From the NCBI GenBank assembly GCA_963769885.1, contig CAVYNH010000004.1, positions 140,495-204,494 on the forward strand: DNA of 64,000 nucleotides, given 5' to 3'. Below the pieces are notes generated by a model that saw only the letters and a program-made list of their open reading frames with translations, ran no database searches and was not told the DNA's origin. Shown here piece by piece: positions 3,402 through 54,011 of the stretch. Origin of the DNA: Methanobacteriota archaeon. Lineage in GTDB: Archaea > Thermoplasmatota > E2 > DHVEG-1. How positions within the stretch are numbered: the first letter of the stretch is position 1; every line of letters begins with the position of its first letter. A program made the position numbers and the translations under genes.

Positions 3402-4700
3402 ATGCGGAATCCTTTTGTAAAGCCCATCGCGGCGTGGTACTCCAACCAATGCTCCAGGTGTGGCACCCCCCGCATCGAAGCTCTCCTGCGTAGTTATCAC
3501 GAAACAATAATCTGCCCAGAATGCAGTACGCGCCTTCTTTTCGGAAGCATGCTGTTCAAGATACTCATGAGGTCTATGAAAATAGACGATGTCGAGCTAA
3601 GCGAGTTATCCTCCGATGCTGAAGCGATGGCCTCTATCAACGCATTTTTGCGCAGTATCAGGAGCCAAGGGCGTCTCGCGATTGAATTCGGTATCCCAAT
3701 CTATGCGGTCTTTGATGTCACGAGCAAATGTAACCTTGCCTGTATCCATTGTTACGCCTCAGGGCAACAAGAGGAGTTACCGACGACAGCGGTGACTCGT
3801 ATCTTAGACAAGCTTGCTTACGCAGGCGTGGGGATGGTTGATTTTGGAGGAGGGGAGCCTCTCCTACGAGCAGATATCTTTGATATTTTGGCGCATTCAA
3901 AACACAAGGGGCTGTATACATCGATTTCAACCAATGGGGTACTCCTTGATGAGTTCTGTGCGAGGCGCTTGAAAGAACTTGGTATCGATCACGTCTGCGT
4001 CAGCCTCGATGGCGCAACACCAGAGACCCATGATCGCATCCGGAATAAAAAAGGAACGTACGAGGAAGCAATCAGAGGTATTAAGCACTGTCGCAACGCC
4101 GGGATATCGACACAGATTTCAACGGTGTTTATGAGGAGCAACATCGATGAATTAGAGGACCTTACCAGGCTCTTAAAAGGGCTTCGTGTCGATGGATGGT
4201 ATCTGTATGATTTCGTTCCCGCTGGACAAGGGAAAGAACTGCTTCAGGAGGTTCTCTCCCAAGAGCAACGCAAGCATCTCTTTGACTATTTGGCGGACAT
4301 CGCGCCTTCAAGCACGATGACGCTGAAACCCTATCCGTATCTAATAACGATCAACTCCGTCTCTTGTACGGATACATATTTCTATAAAAAATATGGGCGG
4401 CTCACCGAGTTTTTTAAAGGGTGTTTATCAGGGCGATGGGTCTGTCATATCTCGAGCAACGGAGACCTCCATCCGTGCCATCTTTTACCCCAGACGCTCG
4501 GGAATCTTACCCAAGAAACCATCGAAGAAATCTGGTTCAACAAGAAGAACCGTGTTCTGCAGGAACTACGAGAAAGACGATTGGTAAAGGGAACCTGTGG
4601 AGAATGCACCCATCGAGACGTGTGCGGCGGATGCCGGGCACAAGCATTCTGGAAAACAGGCGATTATCTTGAAGGGGATTGCTGCTGGATTAAAAATTAA
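3402..4700 (+). CDS. radical SAM/SPASM-domain enzyme with N-terminal zinc-ribbon
   Basis: An N-terminal CxxC...CxxC ribbon precedes CNLACIHCY (CxxxCxxC) and GGGEPLL. The C-terminal motifs GCLSGRWVCHISSNGDLHPC and CGECTHRDVCGGC are canonical SPASM. Confidence 0.65.
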   Translation: MRNPFVKPIAAWYSNQCSRCGTPRIEALLRSYHETIICPECSTRLLFGSMLFKILMRSMKIDDVELSELSSDAEAMASINAFLRSIRSQGRLAIEFGIPIYAVFDVTSKCNLACIHCYASGQQEELPTTAVTRILDKLAYAGVGMVDFGGGEPLLRADIFDILAHSKHKGLYTSISTNGVLLDEFCARRLKELGIDHVCVSLDGATPETHDRIRNKKGTYEEAIRGIKHCRNAGISTQISTVFMRSNIDELEDLTRLLKGLRVDGWYLYDFVPAGQGKELLQEVLSQEQRKHLFDYLADIAPSSTMTLKPYPYLITINSVSCTDTYFYKKYGRLTEFFKGCLSGRWVCHISSNGDLHPCHLLPQTLGNLTQETIEEIWFNKKNRVLQELRERRLVKGTCGECTHRDVCGGCRAQAFWKTGDYLEGDCCWIKN

Positions 4701-6279: not shown

Positions 6280-8604
6280 CTAAGAGGGTGCTATCCGGAT
6301 AAAGATAAGGAAAGCGTAACCGGCTGCGTTTTTAGTGATGGTGGGGATACCATCGGCGCAGACGGTGAAGGTGACGGTGAGGGGGCCGAAGGCGATGAAG
6401 GGGATGAAGGTTGCGGAAGCAGTTTTACCGGCGTCGATAGAGCTGATGTTGCCACATCGGAAGGTGCCAGAAAAGTTGAGCCAGGCTCCTTGGATGGTAT
6501 AGGTATAGACGATGTTGTTGGTAGTGCGGTTGCCGGGGTTGCTGAGGGTGGCTCGGAGTTGCATGAGGCCGCCTCTGATCTTGGTGATCTCGAGTTTGCC
6601 GCCTGCGGGGATAACATTCGCGGTGGTGGTATAAGGGAGGTAGTTGTGTTTGGTTACTGTGACGATCATGGTGCCGGTGGTGGTGGGTGCGACGGTGAAG
6701 GATACGATGCCTGAAATGCTAGTGGTGCCGACTTGGTAGACTTCAGTATTAAGAGTATCGCCTTTCCAGAGGCAGACGGTGGCACCTTCGATGGGGTTAT
6801 TGTTGCTGTCGGCGACGGTGACGTTGTAGGTGGAGGAGCCAACGGTGATACAGGATGGGTAGGTAACACGAAGCGTTCTTGGTGTTGCCGTCCAGATGGG
6901 TGTGCTAGGGTCGCCGAGGAGGGTGAGTTCGGTGTAGATGTATTGGTCGAGGTTGTCGCTGGAGATGCCGTCGTTCTTGTGATTTGAGAGGGCGGCGCCG
7001 ACCGTGTTTTGGTTGTGGGTAAAGATGGATCGAAAGAAGAGGCGGTCGAATTTGAGGCTGAGGCCGTTTTGGCTGCCTATATAGTACCAGCCGTAGCGGC
7101 TGTTGCCAATGAAGGCGATGCCGCCGCCGTGGGCGTTCCGGACAAAATGTTCGCCAATGCAAATATTCGCATCATATGCGCAGGGGTCGCAGCCCATGCT
7201 GTAGTAGATGCCTTGGCGTTGGGCGTTGGCGAGGCCGTCCATGTCGCCGCTGTCGATATACCAGCCGTGGTTGACCGACCCGGTGCCCATGGTGTAGATG
7301 CTGGAGTGGTCGGCGTGGTTCATGAGGTTCTGGCCGGCGTTGAGGGATTTGATGACGTTGTCGCGATGGTTGCCGCTTTCGCTGTCGTATACATGGGTCG
7401 TGTTCCAGCTGTGGGGGATGTAGGCGTCTTTAATGTTTTGTTTGCAGATCTCGACGTGGGTGCTGTTGTCGAGGTCGAAGCCGTACATGGCGGCGTTGGT
7501 GGCGAAGTTGTCGGCGGGGTGTTGTTCGTAGGCGAGGGTTTTGTTGATAAAGTTGCCGATCTGGCCGTTGCCGTCGCCGGAGCCGGTGACGCTGGCGCGG
7601 CCGACGTTGACTTCGATGGTCCAGTCTTCGTCGAAGTCAGCGTAGTAGGTGTCGTTGGGGACGGGGTCGGGGTCGACGGCGGGGAAGCTGTGGTAGTTGC
7701 AGGGGATGGTGCTGGTGTCGCCGCCGAGGAGGATATAGGTGGTGCCCCAATTGTCGTACACGTCTTTGGCGAAGGCGTTGATTTTCTGGTCCTTGCTGCC
7801 ATTGTAGCCGCTTTGGTTGTAGATCCAATCCGTGGTCATGATAATGGTGGGGATGCCGCATTGGGTGCGCCAGTCGGCGAGCGGTTGGAAGGCGTTGACC
7901 CAGTCGGGTTTGGTGATGATGACGTACTCGTAATGTCCGGGTGGGAGGCCTGTGGTGCGTGGTTTGGGGTTGTGTTGGAGGGCGATGTCGGGGGGGTTGA
8001 TGACTAGGTGTTGAACCTTGGCGATGCGTTGTTGGGTCTCGGTTGATGTGAGGCCGGTGGGGAGGTAGTCTCCGTAAGTATGGGTTGGCGTGCCGGTGAG
8101 GGTAATGGTGAGGCTGGTGGTGAGGGTGAGTGTTTTGTCGGCAGGGATGTAATGGATGGGGTAGATGGTGATGAGGGCGATGGCTTGACCTGCAAGGTCG
8201 GTCTCTGCGGTTAGTACGGCGGTCTGGGTTGGATAGGGTGTAGTGGAGTGGTAGGCTGTTTCGTCTGGTGATGTGAAGGTGTTGGTATCATCGTTGGTGG
8301 TGCGTGGTGTCTGTGTGGGCCAAATATTATAGGTGCCGATGAGGGGTTGGGTTCGTTGGTTGAGGATTTGGATGGCGGTGGCTTGAAGGTTGGGCGGGAG
8401 GGCTATTTTGAGGGTGATGGCGGGAAGGCTGGGTTTGCCTGGTTCGGTGGTGGTGCTGCCGTTTGTTGTGGTGATTTGGTCGTAGCCGTTGTATGTACTG
8501 AAGTCAAAGTCGTCGGATGTGAAGGTGATGGTGATTGTCTTGGTGGGGGTTGTGGTGGTTGCGGGTACGGTGGTCGTGAAGACGAGGCTGCCGATAATTA
8601 TCAA
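6280..8604 (-). CDS. secreted C25 (gingipain)-like cysteine peptidase with Thr-rich N-terminal linker
   Basis: A signal/TM and TTTTPTKT linker precede motifs YILLGGDTSTIPC, a His in MNHADHSS and a Cys in YYSMGCDPCAYD, which are C25-like. Closest paralog in window is 16082..18034. Confidence 0.55.
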   Translation of the reverse strand: MIIIGSLVFTTTVPATTTTPTKTITITFTSDDFDFSTYNGYDQITTTNGSTTTEPGKPSLPAITLKIALPPNLQATAIQILNQRTQPLIGTYNIWPTQTPRTTNDDTNTFTSPDETAYHSTTPYPTQTAVLTAETDLAGQAIALITIYPIHYIPADKTLTLTTSLTITLTGTPTHTYGDYLPTGLTSTETQQRIAKVQHLVINPPDIALQHNPKPRTTGLPPGHYEYVIITKPDWVNAFQPLADWRTQCGIPTIIMTTDWIYNQSGYNGSKDQKINAFAKDVYDNWGTTYILLGGDTSTIPCNYHSFPAVDPDPVPNDTYYADFDEDWTIEVNVGRASVTGSGDGNGQIGNFINKTLAYEQHPADNFATNAAMYGFDLDNSTHVEICKQNIKDAYIPHSWNTTHVYDSESGNHRDNVIKSLNAGQNLMNHADHSSIYTMGTGSVNHGWYIDSGDMDGLANAQRQGIYYSMGCDPCAYDANICIGEHFVRNAHGGGIAFIGNSRYGWYYIGSQNGLSLKFDRLFFRSIFTHNQNTVGAALSNHKNDGISSDNLDQYIYTELTLLGDPSTPIWTATPRTLRVTYPSCITVGSSTYNVTVADSNNNPIEGATVCLWKGDTLNTEVYQVGTTSISGIVSFTVAPTTTGTMIVTVTKHNYLPYTTTANVIPAGGKLEITKIRGGLMQLRATLSNPGNRTTNNIVYTYTIQGAWLNFSGTFRCGNISSIDAGKTASATFIPFIAFGPLTVTFTVCADGIPTITKNAAGYAFLIFIRIAPS

Positions 8605-8780
8605 AATTAAAGGGCAGCACAGGTGGTTTGTTTGAATACTTTTATTCCCCCTTTTTCTGGTGTTGAGAAGAGTTATACTTGCATGGTACTTTTAAAGGTT
8701 TTCCTGAAGTGTGCCTGAGGCTTCTCTTGAGTATGCCTGGGGGAAATATCCGGTGTAATATGTCAACTCAAATTGAAAGG

Positions 8781-8840
8781 ACCTAGAACGAAATCTGAAC
8801 CCCAGGGACTTATTCTCGCCCCCGACATCTTGTTGTACTA
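8781..8840. repeat. conserved intergenic element, family B copy 1 (aatctgaaccccagggacttattctcgcccccgacatcttgttgtactacgattcg)
   Basis: It aligns at about 75% over about 55 nt with 12146..12200. Both copies lie 110-170 nt upstream of secreted-protein genes. Confidence 0.55.
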
Positions 8841-8999
8841 CGATTCGCCTTTTCGGTGGAGGATTTGTTAGCACCTTGATATGCTCCGACCTGTAGATGC
8901 CGTCAACAGATGTTGTTATAAATAGTATAAATATAATTGAAATAGAGAAATATTTTTAAGAAGATGTCTTATACATAACAATGAAGAGGGAGGAAATCC

Positions 9000-9800
9000 A
9001 TGGCGAGATATCACCTTTTGAAGAAAAGTATAGCTGTTGGCATTATTAGCCTGTTCATTGGAGGATTAGCGACCTCAAGCGTCACCGTCAGGTGCGTGCA
9101 CGCATCTCAGGAACACACTCTTGTGACTGTGACTTCGGAGGTATGCGGTGCCCCAGGACTTGCCACACATACAGCCCTGATAACGGCACAGCAGTACCAG
9201 GAACTCGAGCAACAACTCGAAGCCATAAAGGAACGGCTAACACGCGGACTCTCGTATCAACAGACCATCGCAAGCATCCAGGAAATCGTGCGTGCGCTCA
9301 AGACCTATCAATTATTGCCACAAGGGGCGTCCATTGACCAAGTCCAACAGGCGATCGCAGGCCCATACGAGAATCCAACAGCGTTTATGGTGAGAGGAAA
9401 GGTAGCCCAGAGGAACGAGTTTTCCAGTAATCAAAGCAATTCCCTTTGTCTCATCAGCGGTACCGTTCAGGACGGGTCTGTCACTGGACCACTGGGGCTT
9501 GCGGGAGCAGCGATTGCGGCGTTAGGATTGATCCTCAAACAGAACCTCACAGCGGCCATCGGATTACTGCTGTTGGGTATAAGTCATTATATCACGACAC
9601 TTTCCCCCGTCTCACTCTTGCAACGAGTGACAATAAAATCAGGCAACATCACATCGGTCGGACTCAACGGTGTACAAATTTTCAATATCAGCAGCGAAAC
9701 TGGCGAAGGGGTGATATCCGGCTTCTCTGGGATTAAAATTACACGAGATGACACAAGCCAGATGAGCCTCCTTGGGTTCGCACTTGGCATCAAAGTATAG
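9000..9800 (+). CDS. membrane-anchored hypothetical protein (paralog of 57259..58107)
   Basis: An N-terminal TM anchor is followed by a conserved block VTVTSEVCGAPG...ITAQQYQELEQQLEAIKERL...YQLLPQGAS, matching VEVTTQACGIQG...LTRQQYQNLQQYL...YGLLPKGMS in the distant paralog. Confidence 0.5.
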   Translation: MARYHLLKKSIAVGIISLFIGGLATSSVTVRCVHASQEHTLVTVTSEVCGAPGLATHTALITAQQYQELEQQLEAIKERLTRGLSYQQTIASIQEIVRALKTYQLLPQGASIDQVQQAIAGPYENPTAFMVRGKVAQRNEFSSNQSNSLCLISGTVQDGSVTGPLGLAGAAIAALGLILKQNLTAAIGLLLLGISHYITTLSPVSLLQRVTIKSGNITSVGLNGVQIFNISSETGEGVISGFSGIKITRDDTSQMSLLGFALGIKV

Positions 9801-9930
9801 AACCAGAGGCTGCGCGCGGCGTCCGAGCGCTATCTGACAGGAAGCGCTTCTTGCCGTACATCGCACCAGCAGCTGAAAGCACCGATTTGCAACTGGTTCT
9901 CCTTAAACCAATTAAAAAAACCTGTGGTCA

Positions 9931-9977
9931 TTAGGAAAGGGAACTGAACAATACACACTCATGTCCGTCCTCGACAT
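9931..9977. repeat. conserved intergenic element, family A copy 2
   Basis: ttaggaaagggaactgaacaatacacactcatgtccgtcctcgacat differs from the 6181..6228 copy at only a few positions. Confidence 0.6.
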
Positions 9978-10086
9978 ATTTCATAATTAATTTGTTGTTT
10001 TTCCTTGGTGTTCTCCTGGTACAATTAAATATTACTATTCCAATACTCATAAATAGAGCAAGGACTTATAATGTTGAGGGGTTGCT

Positions 10087-11940
10087 ATGGCTCATCACGA
10101 CAAATCCCGGATCCTCATTTTATTAACGGCCCTAGTCATGATCAGTGCCTGCAGCGCCCAAGGATCATCACCAAAAGCCTCCAATATGGGTGAAGCCGGA
10201 GGGAAAGTTTTTGACGGGCAGATCCTGTTCTCCCCCTATTATACGACGACCACCTATTTGATCGATAGCAGCGGGACAGTGAATCATACGTGGCCAAGCG
10301 CGTATCGTCCCTTCACGGAGCCCTATTGGCTGGGGAATGGGACCATCCTTCGCCCCATCAGCTCCGGCGGCGGAGGCGTGCAAGAAATCCGCTGGGATGG
10401 GACCCTGGCATGGGACTATCGGTATACCGTCTCCGGGTGCACCTGCCACCATGACATCAAGTACCTCCCGAACGGAAACGTGCTCATGATCGTGTGGGAG
10501 ACAAAAACGAAGAACGAGGCCATTGCCGCCGGTCGGAATCCGGCGACCATCTCAGGGAGCACATTTACCTCCGATAAAATCATCGAGGTGCAGCCGACCG
10601 GCCCGACAAGCGGGACGGTCGTCTGGGAGTGGCACGTCTGGGACCATCTCATCCAGGATTTCGACGCCTCAAAGGCGAATTACGGGGTGGTCGGCGATCA
10701 CCCTGAACTGATTGACGTGAATTTTGGCGACGATTTCGTCGGCGACTGGCTGCATACCAATTCCGTTGATTACGACCCCCAGTTCAATCAACTCCTCATT
10801 GACAGCCATAACTTTGACGAGGTCTGGGTCATCGACCATAACACGACCACGGCGGAGGCCGCGGGCCACAGCGGTGGGCACTACGGGCATGGCGGAGACT
10901 TGCTCTACCGATGGGGAAATCCGCAAGCGTACCGACGGGGCACCTCCAGTGATCAAAAGTTATACTGGCAGCATGACGCCTCATGGATAGAACCTGGGTA
11001 TCCCGGTGCGGGACATGTCCTGGTGTTCAACAACGGCTACAACCGCCCGGGCACGAAATATTCGACCGTGGATGAGTTCGCGCCGCCGATCGATTCTAAC
11101 GGTGTGTATTATCTCGCGCCAGGGTCTTCCTATGGGCCTGCTGATTTCTTCTGGGACTTTACCGCGACTCCGCCCACCTCGCTGTATTCAACCGTGTTCG
11201 GCGGCGCCCTGCGCCTCACGAACGGGAATACGTTGATCTGCGATGGGATCCCGGGGAAGTTCTTGGAGGTGACCCCGGATAAGACCGTGGTCTGGCAGTG
11301 GACGAACCCGTATCCGAGTGCAGGTCAGAACAGCGTGTTCAAGATCGATTATATTCCCCATGATATCCCACCAAGTCCACCCCAAATAACAGGCCCGACG
11401 ACGGGAAAAGTCGGGGTTGCGGCACAGTATAATTTCACGGCCATTGACCCTGACGGGGAGGACATCTTCTACTGCATCGATTGGGGCGACCAGACGACTC
11501 CTACCTGGCTTGGCCCCTACCACTCTGGCCATGAGATACCCATGAATCACACCTGGGCTCAGACAGGGTTGTACTCGATCAGGGCGAAGGCGAAGGATGG
11601 CCACGGGGAAAGCGACTGGTCGGACCCGTTCGTGGTCACTATTATTGGTTCGATGCTCGAAACCAACATCGTGGGAGGCATTGGCGTCAAGGCAGTCATC
11701 GCGAACACGGGGGCATCGGACGCCATCGGTGTGCAATGGAAAATCAACGTTGAAGGCGGTGTCGCTGGGAGTATCAATAAGACGATGACCGGCACAGTGG
11801 ACATCCCGTCGCAACAATCGAAGACGGTGAGGACAGGCGTGTTCTTTGGGTTTGGGCCAATTAGCATAACAGTGATCGTCGATGGCGAGGAAACGACTGC
11901 AGAAGGAGCATATCTATTCGTCTTTTCGACGATAAAATGA
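10087..11940 (+). CDS. secreted lipoprotein-like aryl-sulfotransferase (ASST)-like beta-propeller protein with C-terminal PKD-variant (IDWGD) domain
   Basis: A signal peptide with a Cys precedes propeller-type repeats (HHDIKYLPNGN, WEWHVWDH, LHTNSVDYDP). The C-terminal module is DPDGEDIFYCIDWGDQTT..WLGPYHSG..HTW..GLYSIRAKAKDGHGESDWS. The ASST assignment is tentative. Confidence 0.45.
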   Translation: MAHHDKSRILILLTALVMISACSAQGSSPKASNMGEAGGKVFDGQILFSPYYTTTTYLIDSSGTVNHTWPSAYRPFTEPYWLGNGTILRPISSGGGGVQEIRWDGTLAWDYRYTVSGCTCHHDIKYLPNGNVLMIVWETKTKNEAIAAGRNPATISGSTFTSDKIIEVQPTGPTSGTVVWEWHVWDHLIQDFDASKANYGVVGDHPELIDVNFGDDFVGDWLHTNSVDYDPQFNQLLIDSHNFDEVWVIDHNTTTAEAAGHSGGHYGHGGDLLYRWGNPQAYRRGTSSDQKLYWQHDASWIEPGYPGAGHVLVFNNGYNRPGTKYSTVDEFAPPIDSNGVYYLAPGSSYGPADFFWDFTATPPTSLYSTVFGGALRLTNGNTLICDGIPGKFLEVTPDKTVVWQWTNPYPSAGQNSVFKIDYIPHDIPPSPPQITGPTTGKVGVAAQYNFTAIDPDGEDIFYCIDWGDQTTPTWLGPYHSGHEIPMNHTWAQTGLYSIRAKAKDGHGESDWSDPFVVTIIGSMLETNIVGGIGVKAVIANTGASDAIGVQWKINVEGGVAGSINKTMTGTVDIPSQQSKTVRTGVFFGFGPISITVIVDGEETTAEGAYLFVFSTIK

Positions 11941-12145
11941 AAAAAGGTTCAGTCATCCGTTGACCCGTTGGAATCTGGGAAGCATCTGAAGTCTCAGGGG
12001 CTCCTTCCGATTTCTGGCATGCTTCGATTTTTGGGGAATAATTTCAAGCGTACCCAATATCGCAATATTCAATAGATCACTTTTAAACCCTGCAAGGCAT
12101 ATTATACTTCGAGCTAGGTAAGCGCATTCATCTGTTAATCCTCAA

Positions 12146-12200
12146 AGAATCTGAACCCAGGGCTTAGCTCTTGCCCCCTACTCTCTAGTACAATTATCAA
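12146..12200. repeat. conserved intergenic element, family B copy 2
   Basis: aatctgaacccagggcttagctcttgccccctactctctagtacaattatc aligns with 8781..8840. Confidence 0.55.
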
Positions 12201-12290
12201 ATTTTATTACCTGTGTGAATCCGGTTCGTAGATAGGTAGATTAATAAATGAAATCTTCTATTTTAATTAACAACATACGGGGGATACTTC

Positions 12291-14234
12291 ATGAACAAGA
12301 AATGGTTCAGTCTCGTGGTATTGTTCCTATTATGCACGACGAGCTATGTCTGCGTCACCGCCAGCCAACCAGCAAGCTCTGACCCAGGAACGTCCTATAG
12401 GCTTCGTCTACACACTAAGGATGCACCTCGAGTCGCCGCTCAATTCATCAAAGAAGGATACGACGTCCTGGATGGAACCGTCACCGAAAACTCTTTTGAA
12501 CTCATCTGCCAGCCGCCTGTCTATCAGCGATTGCAGGCGCTGCAATACAACATGGATGTGCTTGCTCGTGGACAACCATTCAGCGAGATCCAACGCGAAC
12601 TGAACCAAGGGTCGACGCTTCCAGTGCCCCCCGGGTATCCAACGCTGGCTGAAATCCTCAATCAACTGAACACTACCGCGGCCGCGAACCCCTCCATCTG
12701 CAAGGTCTACAACCTCACGACAACCTACGGCACCAACGTGACCTATGAAGGCAGACATATGTGGGCGTTGAAGATCTCGGACAACGTCGCCGTCGATGAA
12801 GACGAGCCGAACTTCCTCAACGTCGGCAACTACCATGCCCGTGAAATCGTCACCCCGGTGCTCATCCTCTACGCCATTAACCAAATGGTCAGCGGCTATG
12901 GGACGAACCCGACAATCACCGGCATCGTCGACAATTATGAGCTCTGGTATGCTCCCACATGGAACCCCGACGGCTACAACTACGTCTACAACGTCGACAA
13001 CATGTGGCGGAAGAACCGCCATCCCTACCCGCCTGGTGTCGGTGTCGACCTGAACCGGAACTATAATATCGGCTGGAACGTCGCTGGCAGCACCGATCCT
13101 ACCTCTGAGGAGTACCGGGGTCCATTTGTTGCCTCGGAATCCGAGACGCAGACGATGGTCGCCTTCAACAACAACCGGCATTTCGCGAAAGTCCTGGATT
13201 ACCACTCCTCCGGCCGCGAGACCCTCTATGGTTACCTGACGTTGACCCACCCCTTCATCAGCTGGCTGCAGTCTGAGGCGGTGCAACTCTCGACACAGTC
13301 TGGGTATGGTGGTTCGGTTCGCCCGCCAAGTTCCGAAGGTGAAAACTACGAATGGCAGCTTGCCTGCAACGGCTCGTATTCGAACCTGATCGAGACCGCG
13401 ACCGATTTCCAGCCGTCCTACGCCAGCGCGCAGGCAGAGGCGGTCATGGTGTGGCCCGGGCAGTTGTGGATGCTGCAGCGGCCAATCTCCGTCAGCGGCC
13501 ATGTGACGAACGCGGTGACGGGCGCGCCCGTCGTCGCCTCCATCGTCCTTCAAGGCGTGAACTTCCAGAACGGGGAGTATTACCGCAGCGAGCATCGCTT
13601 TGGACGGTACCATCTTTTCCTGCCTCCAGCGACGTATACCCTCAATATTTCTGCCCCCGGGTACTTCTCGCAGACGCAGCAGGTGACGGTCACGCAGTCT
13701 AGTGCTGAAATCATCGAGATTCACCTTGCTCCGCTGAACGCGCCGCCGTCCAAGCCTGATATTACAGGTCCTACCTCTGGGCTTACCGACGAGCAGTTGG
13801 AGTACCGGTTCTCCTCCATTGACCCCGATAACGACACGATTTCTTACTCGATTGATTGGGGCGATGGGACCGCGCCGGTCTGGCTTGGCCCGTATCCATC
13901 CGGGTTCGAGGCGAATACGACGCATCAGTGGGTCTCTGCGGGAACGTACCCGGTGAAGGTCAAGGCCAAGGACCAAGTGGGTGCCGAGAGCAACTGGTCC
14001 ACGTCATTGTACGTGCATATCAACGCCTTCAAGCGGGCATTCGTCTTCGGGCTCATCTCGGAGAAGAACCAGACTAGTGAACTGATTACCTTCAAGGCGA
14101 AGTTCCTCCTGGTGCTGCCGTCGACGTCGATGCTGTACCATGCCGGTCAGACCATCGAGGTCTCCACTGATGGGAAGCTTGGCTTCATCGGTGAACATTT
14201 CGCCGCCGGATTCTTCAAGACATTGGTTCTTTGA
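12291..14234 (+). CDS. secreted zinc carboxypeptidase, peptidase family M14, with carboxypeptidase-regulatory-like and PKD-variant C-terminal domains
   Basis: A signal peptide is followed by the HxxE motif YHAREIV, NPDGY and DLNRNY, which are M14 signatures. A transthyretin-like block (SGHVTNAVTGAPV...) follows. The C-terminal module is IDPDNDTISYSIDWGDGTAPVWLGPYPSG...VKVKAKD. Confidence 0.7.
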   Translation: MNKKWFSLVVLFLLCTTSYVCVTASQPASSDPGTSYRLRLHTKDAPRVAAQFIKEGYDVLDGTVTENSFELICQPPVYQRLQALQYNMDVLARGQPFSEIQRELNQGSTLPVPPGYPTLAEILNQLNTTAAANPSICKVYNLTTTYGTNVTYEGRHMWALKISDNVAVDEDEPNFLNVGNYHAREIVTPVLILYAINQMVSGYGTNPTITGIVDNYELWYAPTWNPDGYNYVYNVDNMWRKNRHPYPPGVGVDLNRNYNIGWNVAGSTDPTSEEYRGPFVASESETQTMVAFNNNRHFAKVLDYHSSGRETLYGYLTLTHPFISWLQSEAVQLSTQSGYGGSVRPPSSEGENYEWQLACNGSYSNLIETATDFQPSYASAQAEAVMVWPGQLWMLQRPISVSGHVTNAVTGAPVVASIVLQGVNFQNGEYYRSEHRFGRYHLFLPPATYTLNISAPGYFSQTQQVTVTQSSAEIIEIHLAPLNAPPSKPDITGPTSGLTDEQLEYRFSSIDPDNDTISYSIDWGDGTAPVWLGPYPSGFEANTTHQWVSAGTYPVKVKAKDQVGAESNWSTSLYVHINAFKRAFVFGLISEKNQTSELITFKAKFLLVLPSTSMLYHAGQTIEVSTDGKLGFIGEHFAAGFFKTLVL

Positions 14235-14327
14235 AGAAAAAAATTTGACTCGAAGGATTGATACCCTTAGATCTAAATGGATAGAATTCATAATGAATTA
14301 ACACCCTGAGCGAGGGAGGGAGAACGT

Positions 14328-15974
14328 ATGAAAAAGAATCTCTGGGTCTTGATTGTCTGCCTGCTGCTGATAACATCGACTTTCACCTTCATCTCTTCGA
14401 CCATTGAGCCTGAAAAGAACGTCCGCGCCAATGAGGCGGCCGTGACCAAGGACTGCGGATGCGGTTTGGAGGATGAATCCGTTAGTCAAGAACCGGTTCG
14501 CACTCAGATTCTTGTGGATGAAACTGTCGGCGAGTCCGGAAGACCCGCGCCAGCCAGCGACTTACCCGCGTCTTTCAGCTGGTTAGACATGAATGGATCA
14601 GACTGGACGACGCCTGCCAAAGACCAAGGGAGCTGCGGCAGCTGCTGGGACTTCGCCGCGATCGGGGCGCTGGAAAGCATCATCCAGATCCAGGAGGGAT
14701 GCCCCGGGCTGCGGCTCGACCTCTCCGAGCAATACGTGCTGTCCTGCCTGCATGCGGCGGGAAGCTGCAAGGGCGGATGGGCGTATAACGCGTTCAAGTA
14801 CATCAAGAGCAACTCCTCAGCCGGGAATTTCTGCAATGGCATCATCCCAGAGTTTTGCTTCCCCTATCAGGTCAATGACGATGTCCCCTGTGCGAACGCC
14901 AGCCCCGACTGGAGATCGTTTCTCATCCCGATCACGAACTATGGCCGATGGGCTGCGAACGGCAGCGCTCAGGCCCGCGACGTGATAAAGACTCAGGTCA
15001 TGACTTTTGGGCCGGTTGCCGCCACGATGCTGTGCACCTATTATATCCATGGCGATGGAAATCTGGAGGAATGGGGCTATATGCACCATGATCCGACGGA
15101 GTACTATGCCTATCCGGGGCCATACACGGGCACGAACCACCAGGTGGTCATCGTCGGCTGGAAGGACGACGCCTCCATCCCGCACGGTGGCTATTGGATC
15201 GTGAAGAACAGTTTCGGCCCGGAATGGGGGTATGACGGGTTCTTCAACCTCGAGTACGGCAGCCTGCGGATCGATGCGGCGGATATCGACTGGGTGGAGT
15301 ACAACCCGGCGAACTACAGTAACTGGGTGCCGGTCGCCCAAATCGTGACCCAAGGGGCTGCATCCATGGACCAAGCGATCACGTTCAATGGGAGCACCAG
15401 TTTTGACCATGAAGGCAGCATCGTTTCATATCAATGGGACCTGGGCGATGGGACGAGCCAGCCCGGTCCGGTTGTCTCGCATTTGTATGCGAGCCCGGGG
15501 ATCTATCGGGTGACGCTGACGGTTACAGATAATGATAACAATACGGGGTCGCAGTCGGTGTGGGCGTATGTCGACAAGGTGAACCATCCACCAAAGACGC
15601 CGACGCTGCGAGGCCGGCGGTACGTGCAGCCGAATGAGACGTATTCGTATACGTTTTTCTCTGCTGATCCGGACGGCGACGACGTTTCCTATTATCTCAA
15701 TTGGGGGGATACGTACTGGTTTGGTGGAGCGGCGGGGTGGCTTGGCCCGTATCATAGCGGTCAGAAGGTGACCTTGGACAAGAACTGGACGGATAAGGCG
15801 AATTATACGGTGCGCGTCAAAGCCGCTGATCAGTACGGGGCGAAGAGCGGGTGGGCGACTCTGAAGGTCTCCAGTTCCGCTGTCTCAGTGGTCCCGGAGA
15901 ACGGGTTCTGGGCGCAGTTCTTCGAGCGGTTCCCGCATGCGTTCCCGGTCCTGCGGCGCCTCTTGGGGTATTGA
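14328..15974 (+). CDS. secreted papain-like cysteine peptidase (family C1) with canonical PKD plus PKD-variant C-terminal domains
   Basis: A signal peptide is followed by QGSCGSCWDFAAIGALES (catalytic Cys), His in NHQVVIVGW and Asn in YWIVKNSFGPEWG. One PKD domain follows (WDLGDGTS...YRVTLTVTD), then ADPDGDDVSYYLNWGD...WLGPYHSG...VRVKAAD. Confidence 0.7.
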   Translation: MKKNLWVLIVCLLLITSTFTFISSTIEPEKNVRANEAAVTKDCGCGLEDESVSQEPVRTQILVDETVGESGRPAPASDLPASFSWLDMNGSDWTTPAKDQGSCGSCWDFAAIGALESIIQIQEGCPGLRLDLSEQYVLSCLHAAGSCKGGWAYNAFKYIKSNSSAGNFCNGIIPEFCFPYQVNDDVPCANASPDWRSFLIPITNYGRWAANGSAQARDVIKTQVMTFGPVAATMLCTYYIHGDGNLEEWGYMHHDPTEYYAYPGPYTGTNHQVVIVGWKDDASIPHGGYWIVKNSFGPEWGYDGFFNLEYGSLRIDAADIDWVEYNPANYSNWVPVAQIVTQGAASMDQAITFNGSTSFDHEGSIVSYQWDLGDGTSQPGPVVSHLYASPGIYRVTLTVTDNDNNTGSQSVWAYVDKVNHPPKTPTLRGRRYVQPNETYSYTFFSADPDGDDVSYYLNWGDTYWFGGAAGWLGPYHSGQKVTLDKNWTDKANYTVRVKAADQYGAKSGWATLKVSSSAVSVVPENGFWAQFFERFPHAFPVLRRLLGY

Positions 15975-15976
15975 GA

Positions 15977-16065
15977 CCCCCCTTTCTTTTTTTCCTTTTC
16001 CTTGATGAGAGTTGATGAACGAGCAAGAAAAAGGGGGAAGTCCCCGGGTTTAGCGGCCGGGGGAC
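15977..16065. terminator. bidirectional terminator region: oligo-T tract immediately after the stop at 15974, plus GC hairpin gtccccgg/ccgggggac at 16040..16065, between convergent genes
   Basis: A T-rich run (ctttctttttttccttttcc) sits next to an 8-9 bp GC stem between convergent ORFs. Confidence 0.4.
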
Positions 16066-16081
16066 TGCGGGGGTGATCTCG

Positions 16082-18034
16082 TTATTGGGCGTAGCCGCCG
16101 ATCATGAGGCTGGGGTCGCCGAGGGCGAGCCATTCCTCGACGGTTTTGGTGTCTGCCTGGTCTGCCATGCCTGGGTAGACGTTCAGGTATCGGGTTATGG
16201 AACCGCTCCAGGCGTTGCCGAGGGTCTTAATCGTGCTGGCGTTGTAGGCTTGCAGGAAAGTGCGTTCGATGAAACCGCCGAGTACTTGGTAGCAGGCTGG
16301 TTCCCCGTTCACGTCTCCGATGCCGCCATAGCCGAGGCCGGTGTTGCCCATCACCGCGATGGCGCCGCCGCCTATTTTCGCCATCATCCATTCGCTCCAG
16401 CACCGCGGTGTAGGTGATCCATGGGTCCAGCTGTGGGTGTTATTCTTGTCCAGGGACCACAGGAGGGAGATGTTAATCATGCTGTTGTGGCAGCCGCCGA
16501 CGAGGCAAATCGGGAGTTTTTCGCGGTTGAACAGGGTCATCATATTGTAGATGTGGAGTCCGCCGGGGGTGTGTCCGCTTTTCCAGGTAAATTCGTCATG
16601 CCAGTGGGTGTTCCAGGCGGTGGGGCTGCCGTGGCCGTCGAAGTGGAGGAATCCGCAGCCTGCCGTGATTTCCCGCTCGATGTTCCTTGGGGTGGGCGTC
16701 GAGGTGTTGGTGATGTTACGGTTGGAGGCAAAAAGGTTGATGGCGGTGAAGGTGGGGAGGGATTCGTTGTGGCAGTAAAGGGTTGCGACTTCTCCTTCGT
16801 TGTAGTCGCCGGTGGTGGTGTCATTGAAGGAGTCGCCGCCGACGAGAACCTCTTTGTTGAACCAGGTGGGGTCCGCTTGGGTTGCCTCGTAGGTGATGAT
16901 CTTTTTAACCATAATTTTGAGTTCCGGTGCGTTGCGGCAGGCGAGTCGTCCGACGGCGACGTCCGGGTAGAGGTCGAGGATATCTTTGCCGGCGCCGTTC
17001 CATTTGGCGTAGATGTGGTCGCCATTGGTGTCCCAGCTGGAGAAGTTGCCGTTGCTGTCGTAGATGTCTGCGAAGTAGAGGTCGCTGACGAGGCCGGGGT
17101 CGTAGACGGTGCCGCCTTCGTTAATGTTGGCGTAACGGACGGGGCAGTACCAGGTTTTGACGCCGGCGTTGGCGTTGTCGCGGCCGCCCTTGCCGAAGAT
17201 GTAGCCTTTCATGCCGCCGATGAGCAGGACGTAGGAGGTGTTCCAGGCGTCCACGGCGTGTTTGATGAAGTACTTGATCTTCTCGGGTTTGTCGTAGCCC
17301 GTGTATTGTTTGTAGATATCCTCGAGGGTCATGATGGTGGTGTTGACGCCGTGGCCGATCTTCGCGGTGGCGAGGGGTTCGAGGATGTTAGTGAATTTCT
17401 TGGGGGTGATGATGACGAGGTCGTAGCCGGTGCCGAAGGTCTTCGGGGTGGTTGGGGTTTGGTAGGTGATGGTGATAGTGGCATCCTGGAAGTATTGGAG
17501 GGTGTTGGCAGCGGGGTTGACGCCGGTGGGGAAGGTGCGGATGACGAGGAAGGTGGTGTGTGCGCCGTTGGCGTTCAGTCCGCAGCCGGTGCTATAGTCG
17601 AACCAGGCTGCGGGGTAGTACTGGTTAGATGTGTAGGCTTCGGGGTCCGCGTAGACTGTGAGAGGAGTGATTTGGTCTTCAGGGACGGCTTGTGGTGAGG
17701 GTTTGAGTGGTGCGGTGAGGGTGAGGGTTTCGGTGGTGTGTGGTGTGAGGGTGACGCTGGCGATGGTGGTGCCGAAGGGGAGTTCGAGGGTGGTGGTGGT
17801 CATGGGGATGGCGGGTTTGCCGTCGGCGATGAGGGCGTTGTCGGCGCCGGCGACGGTGAGTTCGGTGTAAGTGTGTGAGTCAATTGTGGTTAAGGCTGTG
17901 GTGGGCGTGGAGAAATGGAGGTTGATTGATTCTGTGGTGGTGGTCTGCTGGCCTGTTGTTAGTATGGTGAGTCCTCCGATGAGGAGTAGGACTACCGCTA
18001 GACAGGAGAGAGTTTTGCTCTGTATTTTTATCAC
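16082..18034 (-). CDS. secreted C25 (gingipain)-like cysteine peptidase with Thr-rich N-terminal linker
   Basis: Motifs are a signal peptide, YVLLIGG, FDGHGSP (His) and LVGGCHNS (Cys). It is a paralog of 6280..8604. Confidence 0.55.
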   Translation of the reverse strand: MIKIQSKTLSCLAVVLLLIGGLTILTTGQQTTTTESINLHFSTPTTALTTIDSHTYTELTVAGADNALIADGKPAIPMTTTTLELPFGTTIASVTLTPHTTETLTLTAPLKPSPQAVPEDQITPLTVYADPEAYTSNQYYPAAWFDYSTGCGLNANGAHTTFLVIRTFPTGVNPAANTLQYFQDATITITYQTPTTPKTFGTGYDLVIITPKKFTNILEPLATAKIGHGVNTTIMTLEDIYKQYTGYDKPEKIKYFIKHAVDAWNTSYVLLIGGMKGYIFGKGGRDNANAGVKTWYCPVRYANINEGGTVYDPGLVSDLYFADIYDSNGNFSSWDTNGDHIYAKWNGAGKDILDLYPDVAVGRLACRNAPELKIMVKKIITYEATQADPTWFNKEVLVGGDSFNDTTTGDYNEGEVATLYCHNESLPTFTAINLFASNRNITNTSTPTPRNIEREITAGCGFLHFDGHGSPTAWNTHWHDEFTWKSGHTPGGLHIYNMMTLFNREKLPICLVGGCHNSMINISLLWSLDKNNTHSWTHGSPTPRCWSEWMMAKIGGGAIAVMGNTGLGYGGIGDVNGEPACYQVLGGFIERTFLQAYNASTIKTLGNAWSGSITRYLNVYPGMADQADTKTVEEWLALGDPSLMIGGYAQ

Positions 18035-18123
18035 CCCTTGTACTGAGATACAGGTAGTTGAAGGAGATATAAATATTTATGTGAGAGATAAAATCTAGGG
18101 AGGGGGGATGTTTTATATTTCTC

Positions 18124-18666
18124 GTGGCGGATGCTGGGGGGATGGTGAAGTCGTCGTTGCCGTCGCCGGAGTCGTTTGTGAGGCGTGCGAGGGCTTTGGG
18201 GGCGGCGGATGCGAAAATCGTCGCTCCGAAGGACGTGTTCACGGCGGAGTGGGTGCGGGTGAAGTGCCAGTTCGGCTGCGACGGGTATGGGGAGCATTTG
18301 ACGTGCCCGCCGTTTTCGCCGACGCCGGCGCAGACTCGGAGGATCCTGGATGAGTACGAGGTCGCGGTGTTAATCCATTACGACTCGGAGGATTGGGAGG
18401 ACATCACGGGGGTCGTGGTGACGCTGGAGCGGGAGGCGTTCCTGGCCGGGTATTATAAGGCGTTGGGGCTGGGCTCTGGGCCGTGTACGCTGTGCGAGAC
18501 CTGTGATATCAAGAGGAGGTGCCGGCATCCTGAGGAGGCGCGGCCGTCGATGGAGGCGTGCGGCATCGATGTTTTTAAGACGGCGCGGGCGGCGGGGTTT
18601 CCCATCGAGGTTGTTAAGGATTATTCATGCCCGCAGAACTACTACGGGCTGCTGCTCCTCCAGTAA
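18124..18666 (+). CDS. predicted metal-binding protein (DUF2284-like, C-x-x-G...C-P-P motif)
   Basis: Motifs KCQFGCDGYGEHLTCPPF and CTLCETCD are present. The actual start is possibly the Met at 18142. Confidence 0.45.
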   Translation: MADAGGMVKSSLPSPESFVRRARALGAADAKIVAPKDVFTAEWVRVKCQFGCDGYGEHLTCPPFSPTPAQTRRILDEYEVAVLIHYDSEDWEDITGVVVTLEREAFLAGYYKALGLGSGPCTLCETCDIKRRCRHPEEARPSMEACGIDVFKTARAAGFPIEVVKDYSCPQNYYGLLLLQ

Positions 18667-18729
18667 ACCGCGGGGGGCAATCTTTAAATCCTGTTCTGAA
18701 TTGATGGCTGGTGGAGGTCGAATAGAAAT

Positions 18730-19707
18730 ATGTGGCTTCAATTGAGATTGTACTTGCTCGTCGCCTTGTTATTCGCCATCCTGTATGGGATTATCTTCGC
18801 GATCGGATGGCTCTTGGGGTTGACGGGATATTCGTTTTTCATCTTCTCCGGTTTCGCCGCGTTCGTGATGGTCCTGATCCAGTTCTTGATCGGGCCGAAG
18901 ATCGTGCAGTGGACGATGCGGGTTAAGTACGTGACCCCGGAGCAGTACCCCAAGCTGTACGCGATGGTCGGGGACCTGGCGAAGCAGGCGGGGCTGCCGA
19001 ACACGCCGAAGGTCGGCATCTCGCAGCTGCGGATTCCCAACGCGTTCGCCTTCGGGCGGACGAAGCGGGGCGCGCGCGTCTGCGTCACCCAGGGGATCCT
19101 GGACCTGTTGACCGATGATGAGCTGAAGGCGGTGCTGGGCCATGAAATCTCACACGTGCGCCACCGGGACGTCGCCGTGATCACGATGCTGAGCGTCATC
19201 CCGATGATCTTCTACATGATCTACATCTCGTTTTTCTGGGGCGGGATGGGGAATCGGGATCGCAACGGCGGCGGGACCGTGCTCGTCGGATTAGTCGCAT
19301 TGGCGGTGTACTTCATCACGAACCTCTTAGTCATGTACGGTTCGCGGATCCGGGAGTACTACGCGGACCAGGGCAGCGCGGAGCTCGGCTGCCAGCCGCG
19401 GTACCTCGCCACCGCGTTATACAAGTTGACGACGTGGAGTGCGAAGGCGCCCAAGCAGCTGATCAAGCAGACGGACGGGATGAAGGCGTTCTTCATCAAC
19501 AACCCGGGCCGGGCGATGGAGGAAGTCCGCGACTTCCAGGAGATCGACGTCACCAAGGACGGCGTCATCGACCAGAACAACCTGATGATGCTGGCCGGCA
19601 AGAAGATCAACCTGCGGGCGGGTGCCCGGTTCCTGGAGATCTTCGGGACGCATCCGAACGTGGTGAAGCGCATCAAGCACCTCGCCAGCCTGCAGTACGC
19701 CTCCTAA
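18730..19707 (+). CDS. htpX: zinc metalloprotease HtpX (peptidase M48)
   Basis: The HExxH motif GHEISHVRHRD sits between TM helices, and a downstream glutamate is present. Confidence 0.75.
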   Translation: MWLQLRLYLLVALLFAILYGIIFAIGWLLGLTGYSFFIFSGFAAFVMVLIQFLIGPKIVQWTMRVKYVTPEQYPKLYAMVGDLAKQAGLPNTPKVGISQLRIPNAFAFGRTKRGARVCVTQGILDLLTDDELKAVLGHEISHVRHRDVAVITMLSVIPMIFYMIYISFFWGGMGNRDRNGGGTVLVGLVALAVYFITNLLVMYGSRIREYYADQGSAELGCQPRYLATALYKLTTWSAKAPKQLIKQTDGMKAFFINNPGRAMEEVRDFQEIDVTKDGVIDQNNLMMLAGKKINLRAGARFLEIFGTHPNVVKRIKHLASLQYAS

Positions 19708-35074: not shown

Positions 35075-35912
35075 TCAATAAGTGTCTGGCAGGAGGTAGA
35101 TATCGATCCATGTTGGTGTAATAGTTCCGATGGGATTGTGGAAGGTAAATTTTCGGGGTAAAAGGAGCCGGGGGAATGGTAGGAGTCCCAGTGGAACCCC
35201 ACTCGCTCCATCATATATGGTTAGTATTGCTCGGAACGTGATGGATTCACTGTTGTTAACGACTTCTTTGACTAAGCCCCAAACGTGGGTGATGTCGGGT
35301 GGGATTCCATCGCATACACACATAGAGAGGCCTGCATTATCGTAGGCGAGTATTTTGAATGTAAAATTTCCATTTGGCAGAGGGTGATGGAGGATGCAAT
35401 AGTACGGAGGCTCTGAATCATTTCCGATGAGCTCTTGACCTTGGTAGAACTCGATGCGGTTGACACCACTCGTAGCGTCGTCGGCAACCACGTAGGAGCA
35501 GAAGTTATTCCTTGACACATGCCGGCATTTTTCAACATAAACGGGTACTATCGTATCCATCTTGAAAGGCTGTTGTTTGTATGGTTCGTAGTTGCCTGCG
35601 TTGTCAATCGACCAATACGTAATCAAATGTTGTCCATCCCCTGAGACGTTAAATGGATAATGGTAAGTCATCTCTTCGCCGCCATCGACTTTATATTTAG
35701 TACCTGCAGACCCCTGATTCGTTGTCGATGGCCGTCAAGGTCACACGGACTTGCGAGACATACCAGTCGTTTTCCCCCATCGTACCGTACAAGGAACAGG
35801 TTGTGAACGGCGGCGTCACGTCATCCCGCGGCGGCATCCCTGAGCTCGTGAAAATAATAGGTTCAGTAACGAGGAGTAGCAGAATGAGCATCGCGGTGTT
35901 TCGTTGTCTCAT
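35075..35912 (-). pseudogene. frameshifted member of the secreted OmpL47/Ig-like domain paralog family
   Basis: The N-terminal fragment (35697..35912) carries the signal and GMPPRDDVTPPFTT. The body (35075..35671) carries DGQHLITYWSIDNAGNYEP. A single frameshift near 35700 joins them: TKYKVDGGEEMTYHYPF matches TFYRFDGGSFLVYTAPF of the neighbour. Confidence 0.45.
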
Positions 35913-35936
35913 TTTTTACCAGCTATCCTTTTCTTT

Positions 35937-36764
35937 TCAAGTAGGGAGTGGGAAGAGGTAGATGTCGATCCAGTGGGGGCTGACCTCGCCGTCGTAGTAG
36001 GAGAAGGTGTAATTACGGGGTAGGAGGAGCCGAGGGAGAGGGAAGAGAGAAAACGGATGTCTATTCGCGGGGTCGTACATGGTGAAGACCGCCCGGAAGG
36101 TGACCAATGTGTTGGTGGAGTTGATGTCGGTGACGATCCTTTTGACGTGGGTGATGTCTTTGGGGGTGGGGCCTAAAATAAAACATGAGAGCCCAGCGTT
36201 GTTATAGGCGATACCTTTCACCGATATATTCCTCTGTGGATGATGAAGGATGTAACAATAAGGAGGCGTTGAATCGATCTTGACGAGTTCTCCGTTACAG
36301 AAAAACTCTACCCTATTTACTCCACTTGTGTGGTCCTGAGAATCGACGCCAAAGCAAACCTCATTCAAGGAGACGTGTTGGCTTGAATTGTAGGTTGGCA
36401 CAGTCGTATCAATCTTGACTTCTTGGACATGCCACGGCTCGACGTTGCCCGCATTGTCAACAGAGTAATAGAATATTTGGTGAACACCGTCCCATGCGAT
36501 GTCGAACGGCGCGGTGTAGACGAGGAAGGAGCCGCCGTCGAATCTGTAGAACGTGGCGTTCACGCCCGACTCGTTATCGACCGCGGTCAAGGTGATGCGA
36601 ACCGACGATATGTACCAGCCGTTGTCCCCCAGCGTCCCGCTCAACATGATGGTCGTGACCGGCGGCGTCACGTCATCGCGCGGAGGCATCCCTGAACTCG
36701 TGAAAATAATGGGGTCGGCTACGAGGAGCAGAAGAATAAGCATAACGATATTTCGGTGCTTCAT
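35937..36764 (-). CDS. secreted OmpL47-type/Ig-like domain protein (paralog)
   Basis: A signal peptide precedes the GMPPRDDVTPPVTT motif and FYRFDGGSFLVYTAPFDIAWDGVHQIFYYSVDNAGNVEP. Confidence 0.5.
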   Translation of the reverse strand: MKHRNIVMLILLLLVADPIIFTSSGMPPRDDVTPPVTTIMLSGTLGDNGWYISSVRITLTAVDNESGVNATFYRFDGGSFLVYTAPFDIAWDGVHQIFYYSVDNAGNVEPWHVQEVKIDTTVPTYNSSQHVSLNEVCFGVDSQDHTSGVNRVEFFCNGELVKIDSTPPYCYILHHPQRNISVKGIAYNNAGLSCFILGPTPKDITHVKRIVTDINSTNTLVTFRAVFTMYDPANRHPFSLFPLPRLLLPRNYTFSYYDGEVSPHWIDIYLFPLPT

Positions 36765-36787
36765 TTTTTACCAACCATCCTTTCCTT

Positions 36788-53824: not shown

Positions 53825-54011
53825 GTCAAATGCAGGAAAAAGGGTAGAAGTCTATCAAGTTTTGCCCAAAAAAGGAGAGTATTAAATCCGGATCACGAAG
53901 AAACCGACAACGAAGGCATCAATGTTCGCCTCAGTCCGTCCCACCCGAACGCGGATCGTCGGCTCACCCAGACCAAAGACAAGCGACCGCAGAATCTGCG
54001 TCTCCCCAGCC

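Follow-up and report, generated by a model that had tools for sequence, protein, structure and literature searches.

The window analyzed here, a stretch of 64,000 nucleotides from a Methanobacteriota archaeon (GTDB lineage Archaea; Thermoplasmatota; E2; DHVEG-1; assembly GCA_963769885.1, contig CAVYNH010000004.1, positions 140,495 to 204,494 of the forward strand), encodes an ASST-like protein, an M14 carboxypeptidase, a C1 peptidase and an FG-GAP protein that share one module close to their C termini, and it raises the question of what this module does on such different proteins. A preliminary description made from the sequence alone took the module for an unusual variant of the PKD domain and suggested for it a common anchoring, sorting or substrate-targeting function. 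The module is real but ordinary, its copies being new members of a known and structurally solved PKD subfamily, and the undescribed feature is a short helical tail that follows the module and ends most Thermoplasmatota proteins of this PKD subtype, as well as a few that lack it. The arrangement is probably a composite in which the PKD module acts as a stalk or adaptor and the tail acts as a position-specific retention or sorting element.

The PKD-subfamily module and its four host proteins

A regular-expression scan of all six frames with the core motif of the module finds exactly four copies in the window. Their alignment gives a module of ~93 residues with 24 invariant columns, and identity to the first copy ranges over 36-51%. 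Three copies are on the forward strand, in the ASST-like protein (gene 10087-11940; module at 11368-11643, residues ~428-519), the M14 carboxypeptidase (gene 12291-14234; module at 13743-14018, residues ~485-576) and the C1 peptidase (gene 14328-15974; module at 15588-15878, residues ~421-517, with an extra four-residue insert, TYWFGGAAGW). The fourth is on the reverse strand in the FG-GAP protein (gene 54737-56896; module at 54830-55108, residues ~597-689). The heads of the four proteins are unrelated, consisting of an Arylsulfotrans domain, Peptidase_M14 with CarboxypepD_reg, Peptidase_C1 with a canonical PKD domain and FG-GAP repeats with a canonical PKD domain, and all four N termini are signal-peptide-like. 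The canonical domain of the C1 peptidase lies directly upstream of the variant module (15330-15554, forward strand, residues 335-409, 78.4 bits to PF18911), and that of the FG-GAP protein likewise precedes its module (55136-55348, reverse strand, residues 517-587, PF18911).

The module is almost certainly a PKD domain. When the modules are scanned alone, all four copies pass a Pfam PKD gathering cut-off (23.5 bits for PF00801 and 27 bits for PF18911), with the ASST-like, M14 and C1 copies scoring 28.8, 39.9 and 25.0 bits against PF00801, the M14 copy scoring 39.7 bits and the FG-GAP copy 34.9 bits against PF18911. A profile of the four copies searched against PDB sequences returns 4xed_A with an E value of 7.8e-34, followed by the PKD-like domains of the collagenases ColG and ColH at ~1e-5. 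The 4XED entry is described as the PKD domain of an M14-like peptidase from Thermoplasmatales archaeon SCGC AB-540-F20, and its aligned sequence shows the same variant signature (...YYIEWGDGFTEEWIGPYASG...RAKAKDILNYESSWGTLEVTMP). An AlphaFold model of the C1 module with its tail, built on an alignment of 30 sequences, predicts the module as a self-contained seven-stranded β-sandwich with a predicted local distance difference test score (pLDDT) above 90 in the domain. The closest PDB match to this model is again 4XED, with a TM-score of 0.97 (normalized to 4XED), a root mean square deviation of 0.9 Å and 40% identity.

The crystallized domain thus comes from the same kind of enzyme and the same lineage as the window proteins, which means that the supposedly unusual PKD variant has already been solved structurally. 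The resemblance to PKD domains that had been proposed is borne out by the predicted fold, and the novelty of the type is not, since the copies pass the Pfam thresholds and 4XED represents the same subtype. The likeness extends over the whole module, with 4XED reading PPxxPxVTGP...DPNGD..YYIEWGDG..EEWIGPYASG...H.W..KG.Y.V.AKAKD...ES.WG.LEV.MP, 41-49% identical to the window copies, and it derives from an enzyme of the type encoded by gene 12291-14234. It differs in coming from another genome and in ending at ...TMP, so that it is silent on what comes after the module; the same construct end indicates that the module folds without the tail. A literature search on 4XED returned crystallographic-methods papers and no functional paper.

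The module departs from canonical PKD domains, such as those in the C1 and FG-GAP proteins, in having a PPxxP lead-in, [IL][DN]WGD in place of the WDFGDG core, an insertion of ~9 residues (W[LI]GP[YF]xSG) after WGD that adds a strand, and a KAKD..G.ES.W end. The core occurs in the window modules in its altered form only, [IL][DN]WGD[GNQT] with the tryptophan shifted, and 4XED has the same form. The core replacement and insertion originally noted are seen relative to these canonical domains. With the first module copy, the canonical domains upstream in the two proteins share only 25-28% identity. The 4XED sequence used as an independent query matches the four window open reading frames (ORFs) and no others, at 41-49% identity and with E values between 3e-31 and 1e-20 (ASST-like, 6.3e-26; M14, 7.8e-24; C1, 1.1e-20; FG-GAP, 3.3e-31), and it scores ~0 on the canonical PKD domains upstream in the C1 and FG-GAP proteins, which shows the module to be a distinct, recurrent unit. 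Its presence on four unrelated secreted proteins, as first described, is therefore upheld by the six-frame scan, the 4XED query, the distinct heads and the signal-peptide-like N termini. The PKD-domain subfamily to which they belong is large, and its Thermoplasmatota branch carries the signature IDWGD-x4-W[LI]GP[YF]xSG...KAKD..G.ES.W.

Position of the module and the class A tail

A full HMMER scan of 1.84 billion cluster representatives for the module defines a wider family of 21,927 representatives at E ≤ 1e-3, of which 11,438 reach E ≤ 1e-10 and 1,447 reach E ≤ 1e-30. The top-scoring proteins contain from 3 to ~50 tandem copies, as in a Methanothrix protein of 1,920 residues with 16, and the array repeats match the module from end to end, PPxxP lead-in and an SG-containing insertion included, but lack the W.GP[YF] residues. 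P0054 and P0055, two of the representatives, are very large surface proteins in which this form of the module makes up near-identical tandem arrays (11-16 copies), and the cluster of P0054 includes Methanothrix-annotated proteins. Tandem arrays of the full-length module indicate that no terminal position is inherent to the wider family, and a terminal bias as a property of the module itself is accordingly given up, the family being found through these arrays at arbitrary positions in many proteins.

The branch with W[LI]GP[YF] behaves differently. Scanning one genome per GTDB species for it gives 80 loci, of which ~70 are in metagenome-assembled genomes of Thermoplasmatota/Thermoplasmatales, including the MBG-D (marine benthic group D) bins SG8-52-3, SM1-50 and M11B2D, and the branch is almost confined to the metagenome-assembled genomes of Thermoplasmatota. 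The two scans thus recover both a lineage-restricted C-proximal branch, in keeping with the initial proposal, and a family of 21,927 representatives with internal arrays, which departs from it. For statistics on position, genome and metagenome loci served as the sample. The 80 loci contain 127 module-bearing ORFs, 123 of them with a complete 3' end, and the last module ends 20-45 residues before the stop codon in 81 of the 123 and 90-130 residues before it in a further 20. Two or more module genes are present in 28 of the 80 loci, and single genomes have at least 4-10 in the few kilobases sampled. The heads of 60 module proteins are diverse, with C25 peptidases (7), PQQ-type propellers (7), NosD/β-helix proteins (6), S15, S8, C1 and M28 peptidases and FG-GAP repeats. 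By a simple heuristic, signal-peptide-like N termini occur in 135 of 159 module genes compared with 79 of 223 other ORFs in the same loci. The module is therefore a C-proximal unit on diverse Sec-secreted heads that include C25, C1, M14, M28, S8 and S15 peptidases, β-propellers, β-helix proteins and FG-GAP proteins.

The bias toward the C terminus consequently stands for Thermoplasmatota, where the 20-45 residue spacing is far above chance, and falls away both for the wider family and as a strictly terminal position. In the window the module is followed by 94 residues in the ASST-like protein, 67 in the M14 protein, 31 in the C1 peptidase and 30 in the FG-GAP protein, contrary to the earlier statement that it is always the last domain.

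The extensions of 20-45 residues after the module form one family, termed class A. The module ends in ...V.MP, often followed by [KR]N[KR], and the class A consensus of 25-30 residues is MP[KR]N[KR]..PF[LF]..[LF]LERFPxAFP[IL]LRxLLG[YL]; it is the commonest element after the module. The consensus of the tail hidden Markov model (HMM) is KLEVTMPKNKAIINPLFLRLLERFPNAFPILRRLLGL, and the commonest ending is GY. In the window the canonical form is that of the C1 peptidase (15879-15971, forward strand), in which the 31-residue tail SSAVSVVPENGFWAQFFERFPHAFPVLRRLLGY (...FWAQFFERFPHAFPVLRRLLGY) scores 33 bits against a tail HMM from other genomes and is predicted as helix-Pro-helix at a pLDDT of ~70. 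The FG-GAP protein has a degenerate tail, FIVERPVFPLLHWLLDHIGILWHFRVQILQ (54740-54829, reverse strand, 5.4 bits), in which the first helix is kept (compare ...LPFLHWLLDHYPHLFPFLHAFAHR in the representative P0005) and the second half has diverged. A frameshifted canonical tail was considered for this protein and rejected, as the other frames show nothing.

The position of the tail was determined independently of the module by searching metagenome contigs with the tail-only pattern F[QE]RFP[HNQ]AF, which gives 85 instances. The motif is 8-17 residues before the stop codon in all 85 and exactly 9 residues before it in 76. A module is present within 30 residues upstream in 70 of the 80 instances that could be evaluated. 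The ten tails that have no upstream module comprise five in tiny ORFs, which are probably frameshift fragments, and five that follow clearly different domains (loci L083, L090, L111/L153 and L149); further tails without a module occur in L008 and L011. The fixed C-terminal distance together with the module-less cases shows the tail to be a positional element for which the module is the usual, not an obligatory, neighbor.

These distributions bear on the proposal that anchoring, sorting or targeting resides in the module itself, recognized by a receptor or S-layer partner in the manner of a type IX secretion system (T9SS) C-terminal domain or a dockerin. The module is common to unrelated secreted heads, is C-proximal in 101 of the 123 Thermoplasmatota genes and has a conserved, lineage-specific W[LI]GP[YF] insertion, as would be anticipated for such a unit. 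However, it does not end any of the four window proteins, the full-length module also builds internal tandem arrays of 3 to ~50 copies, it matches no NCBIfam sorting-domain model, and the fixed distance to the stop codon belongs to the tail, which also occurs without it. That the module itself is the sorting signal is on this evidence improbable.

The AlphaFold model predicts the tail as two short helices split by a kink at FP.AFP, with a pLDDT of ~70. Across 267 tails, the summed Hessa free energy of the most favorable stretch of 19 residues has a median of +12.8 kcal/mol, and only one of the 267 is at or below zero, compared with -5 to -6 kcal/mol for true transmembrane tails in the same data. 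The hydrophobic moment of the first helix is 0.51 compared with 0.32 ± 0.15 for shuffled sequences. The GY ending is found in 74 tails, and the last 25 residues have a mean net charge of +1.2 with no terminal basic cluster. The tail is thus amphipathic and not membrane-spanning, and it is coupled to the module tightly, although not absolutely; a transmembrane anchor was rejected on the free energies of the 267 tails. Searches of the tails against Pfam and NCBIfam models give no match even at E ≤ 10, and a literature search for the tail peptide strings found no paper.

The tail might alternatively be an undescribed tripartite sortase-type signal similar to PGF-CTERM/archaeosortase, membrane-spanning and cleaved by a dedicated enzyme. 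Tripartite signals are defined as including a transmembrane helix after the signature motif and are characterized by many paralogs, homology confined to the C terminus and restriction to a lineage (PMC3237569). Many paralogs, C-terminal-only homology, signal peptides and lineage restriction are the genomic hallmarks of such signals (PMC3237569) and are all seen here, and processing might take place at the conserved MP[KR]x[KR] junction. The tail nevertheless lacks a membrane-spanning hydrophobic stretch, with a favorable 19-residue window in 1 of 267 cases, ends in GY at a low net charge in place of a basic cluster, and has no NCBIfam match at the same permissive threshold, which leaves a sortase-type signal the least probable of the explanations considered.

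Exchangeable C-terminal elements and neighboring genes

The ASST-like and M14 proteins end in other elements. The C-terminal domain of the ASST-like protein (11650-11937, forward strand), termed class B, reads GGIGVKAVIANTG...GFGPISITV and closes with a hydrophobic last strand; AlphaFold predicts it as a separate, all-β sandwich of eight strands with a pLDDT of 83. A second class B domain (6283-6603, reverse strand, 65.5 bits) ends the C25 peptidase of gene 6280-8604, in which no PKD-variant module precedes it. The class B motif, GGxGVxAxIxNxG...GFG..I.V followed by the hydrophobic last strand, covers ~95 residues, and the 38 instances in the window and related loci, these two included, nearly all end 15-25 residues before the stop codon. 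Both window domains show weak similarity to CARDB (PF07705), scoring 14.1 bits (ASST-like protein, E value 0.058) and 16.1 bits (C25, E value 0.013), short of the cut-off of 22.7 bits. The class B model is a generic β-sandwich with no close fold match in the PDB, the best E value being 6e-3, and the C-terminal domain of the ASST-like protein used as a single-sequence query in a homologous protein search gave no matches. As class B ends one protein after the module and another that has none, the terminal elements are exchangeable independently of the module. A secreted protein at 53882-54578 (reverse strand) also has a class B domain, split over two frames (ORFs 54012-54578 and 53882-54226) by a frameshift that reflects either a pseudogene or a sequencing error.

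The M14 protein ends in a 67-residue extension (14025-14231, forward strand; class C) with no Pfam match and one other instance in 160 related loci (L106). Class D is an Ig-like terminal domain with 29 matches that ends ...AFD..GN....I.WKFF and is Big_7-like in a locus homologue; in the window it ends the product of gene 48650-50107 (reverse strand) and is internal in three tandem paralogues at 35075-37624 (reverse strand). The proteins are thus assembled from exchangeable C-terminal cassettes, among which the PKD module is the commonest penultimate piece.

Three of the four module genes are located in a dense cluster of secreted or membrane peptidases at 6280-19707, composed of C25 (6280-8604), ASST-like, M14, C1, C25 (16082-18034) and M48 (18730-19707) genes, an arrangement consistent with the protein-degrading lifestyle reported for MBG-D/Thermoprofundales.

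Neighboring genes were clustered across 160 related loci (L001-L160). Two families only recur, an unannotated membrane protein and a radical SAM/SPASM gene, and with 5-6 loci each neither can be called a partner. No cognate receptor for the module was identified in the neighborhoods of the 160 loci. The membrane protein family is represented in the window by two paralogous predicted membrane proteins (9000-9800, forward strand, and 57259-58107, reverse strand; 32% identity, no family match), each directly upstream of a module gene, and it adjoins module genes also in L008, L009, L070, L078 and L144. As a candidate for the cognate partner it was rejected, its recurrence in ~5 of 160 loci being too low. 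Radical SAM genes are present at 192-1460 and 1400-2608 on the reverse strand and at 3402-4700 on the forward strand; at least one has a SPASM domain, and the best NCBIfam matches are AhbD/NirJ-like and far below the cut-offs. Homologues of the gene at 3402-4700 occur in L022, L028, L030 and L049, and three of these loci contain class-B-terminated proteins of ~630 residues, about the length of the ASST-like protein. The radical SAM gene and the class-B-terminated protein could represent a maturase-substrate pairing.

Proposed roles of module and tail compared with known systems

Other PKD domains suggest by analogy that the module most likely serves as a stalk or adaptor, and as a rigid element it would hold the catalytic head away from the site at which the C-terminal element attaches. 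It may add weak binding to polymeric substrates, as in other protease PKD domains. In clostridial collagenases, the ColG and ColH PKD-like domains (PDB codes 4U6T, 4U7K, 2Y72 and 4AQO), whose proposed roles include collagen swelling, enhanced binding and linkage (PMC4356367), are similarly placed as a β-sandwich accessory, with the secreted protease head on one side and C-terminal binding modules on the other; the likeness is also seen in the window copies exceeding the Pfam PKD threshold and in the PDB sequence match at E ~1e-5.

The same comparison supports a simpler account in which the module is an accessory that binds substrate or enhances solubility, as PKD domains do in collagenases, chitinases and marine proteases, and was brought close to the C terminus by domain shuffling. 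In this account the tail would cap the structure of this PKD subtype, or serve its folding or as its pro-peptide, and would have no sorting role. In its favor, the ColG and ColH domains are the closest solved relatives after 4XED, many of the heads are peptidases in a lineage that degrades detrital protein (PMC6461988), the 88% coupling of tail to module suits co-evolution as one unit, and the 4XED construct ending at ...TMP shows that the module folds alone. Against it stand the non-hydrolase heads (FG-GAP, PQQ-type propellers, NosD-like β-helix), for which swelling of a substrate makes little sense, and a tail sequence that is more conserved than the module surface, lies at an exact nine-residue distance from the free C terminus and occurs after unrelated domains as well, all of which are marks of a recognized signal and not of a cap. 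We regard this account as unlikely, if less so than a signal residing in the module.

In the composite reading, it would be the tail and not the module that carries the position-specific function, most likely retaining the secreted enzyme at the cell surface, either through a protein partner on which it docks or through binding at the membrane interface. The conserved sequence, the fixed distance to the free carboxyl end and the amphipathic helices fit such a retention element, and the chances that the tail is a retention or sorting determinant are at best even. Several observations weigh on the other side. The helices of the tail are modeled at a pLDDT of ~70 only, and the clustering of neighbors in the 160 loci yields neither a partner protein nor a processing enzyme. 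Both samples are biased, as the 80 genome loci were chosen by a pattern internal to the module and the top 150 representatives were ranked by summed score. Within the window the tail is canonical only in the C1 peptidase, decayed in the FG-GAP protein and absent from the ASST-like and M14 proteins, which the composite leaves unexplained, and the tail-module coupling of ~88% would equally suit a single structural unit without a sorting role.

A bolder form of the composite, which we put forward tentatively and consider doubtful, is that the tail represents a new class of non-transmembrane archaeal C-terminal retention or sorting signal, by which Thermoplasmatota, including sediment MBG-D, would keep dozens of secreted hydrolases and adhesin-like proteins on the surface through a partner or interfacial membrane binding, with the PKD module as an obligatory stalk. 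Were retention indeed its function, the tail would account for the way in which uncultured Thermoplasmatota of sediments hold their costly extracellular peptidases near the cell, would bear on detrital protein degradation by these abundant archaea and would constitute a kind of archaeal surface-targeting signal outside the scheme of motif, transmembrane helix and basic cluster.

Among known sorting systems, the analogies initially drawn with PGF-CTERM, the T9SS C-terminal domain and dockerins do not hold for the tests of membership applied. NCBIfam sorting-domain models match neither the window proteins nor the module. The T9SS (Por) C-terminal domain has no Pfam or NCBIfam match in the four proteins, and the module is never at the extreme C terminus and the lineage is archaeal. 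The Pfam dockerin model matches neither the full proteins nor the tails scanned at E ≤ 10. The tripartite signals LPXTG, PEP-CTERM, PGF-CTERM, GlyGly-CTERM and MYXO-CTERM resemble the tail in being strictly C-terminal, in occurring on many unrelated signal-peptide-bearing paralogs per genome and in belonging to one lineage. In contrast to them, the tail has no transmembrane helix, no terminal basic cluster, no model match and no identified sorting enzyme, and since it fails the transmembrane and basic-cluster criteria it should not be classed as a tripartite sortase-type signal.

Another parallel is offered by the C-terminal amphipathic helix of Escherichia coli PBP5 and PBP6, which anchors these exported enzymes at the membrane. 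In both systems an exported enzyme bears a signal peptide at its N terminus and, at the extreme C terminus, a short amphipathic helix that does not span the membrane, the hydrophobic moment of the tail exceeding that of shuffled sequences as described above (0.51 compared with 0.32). Unlike the PBP5/PBP6 anchor, the tail is a predicted helix-Pro-helix hairpin, and its sequence (ERFPxAFPxLRxLLGY) is so highly conserved that a protein seems more likely to recognize it than generic binding to lipid to explain it.

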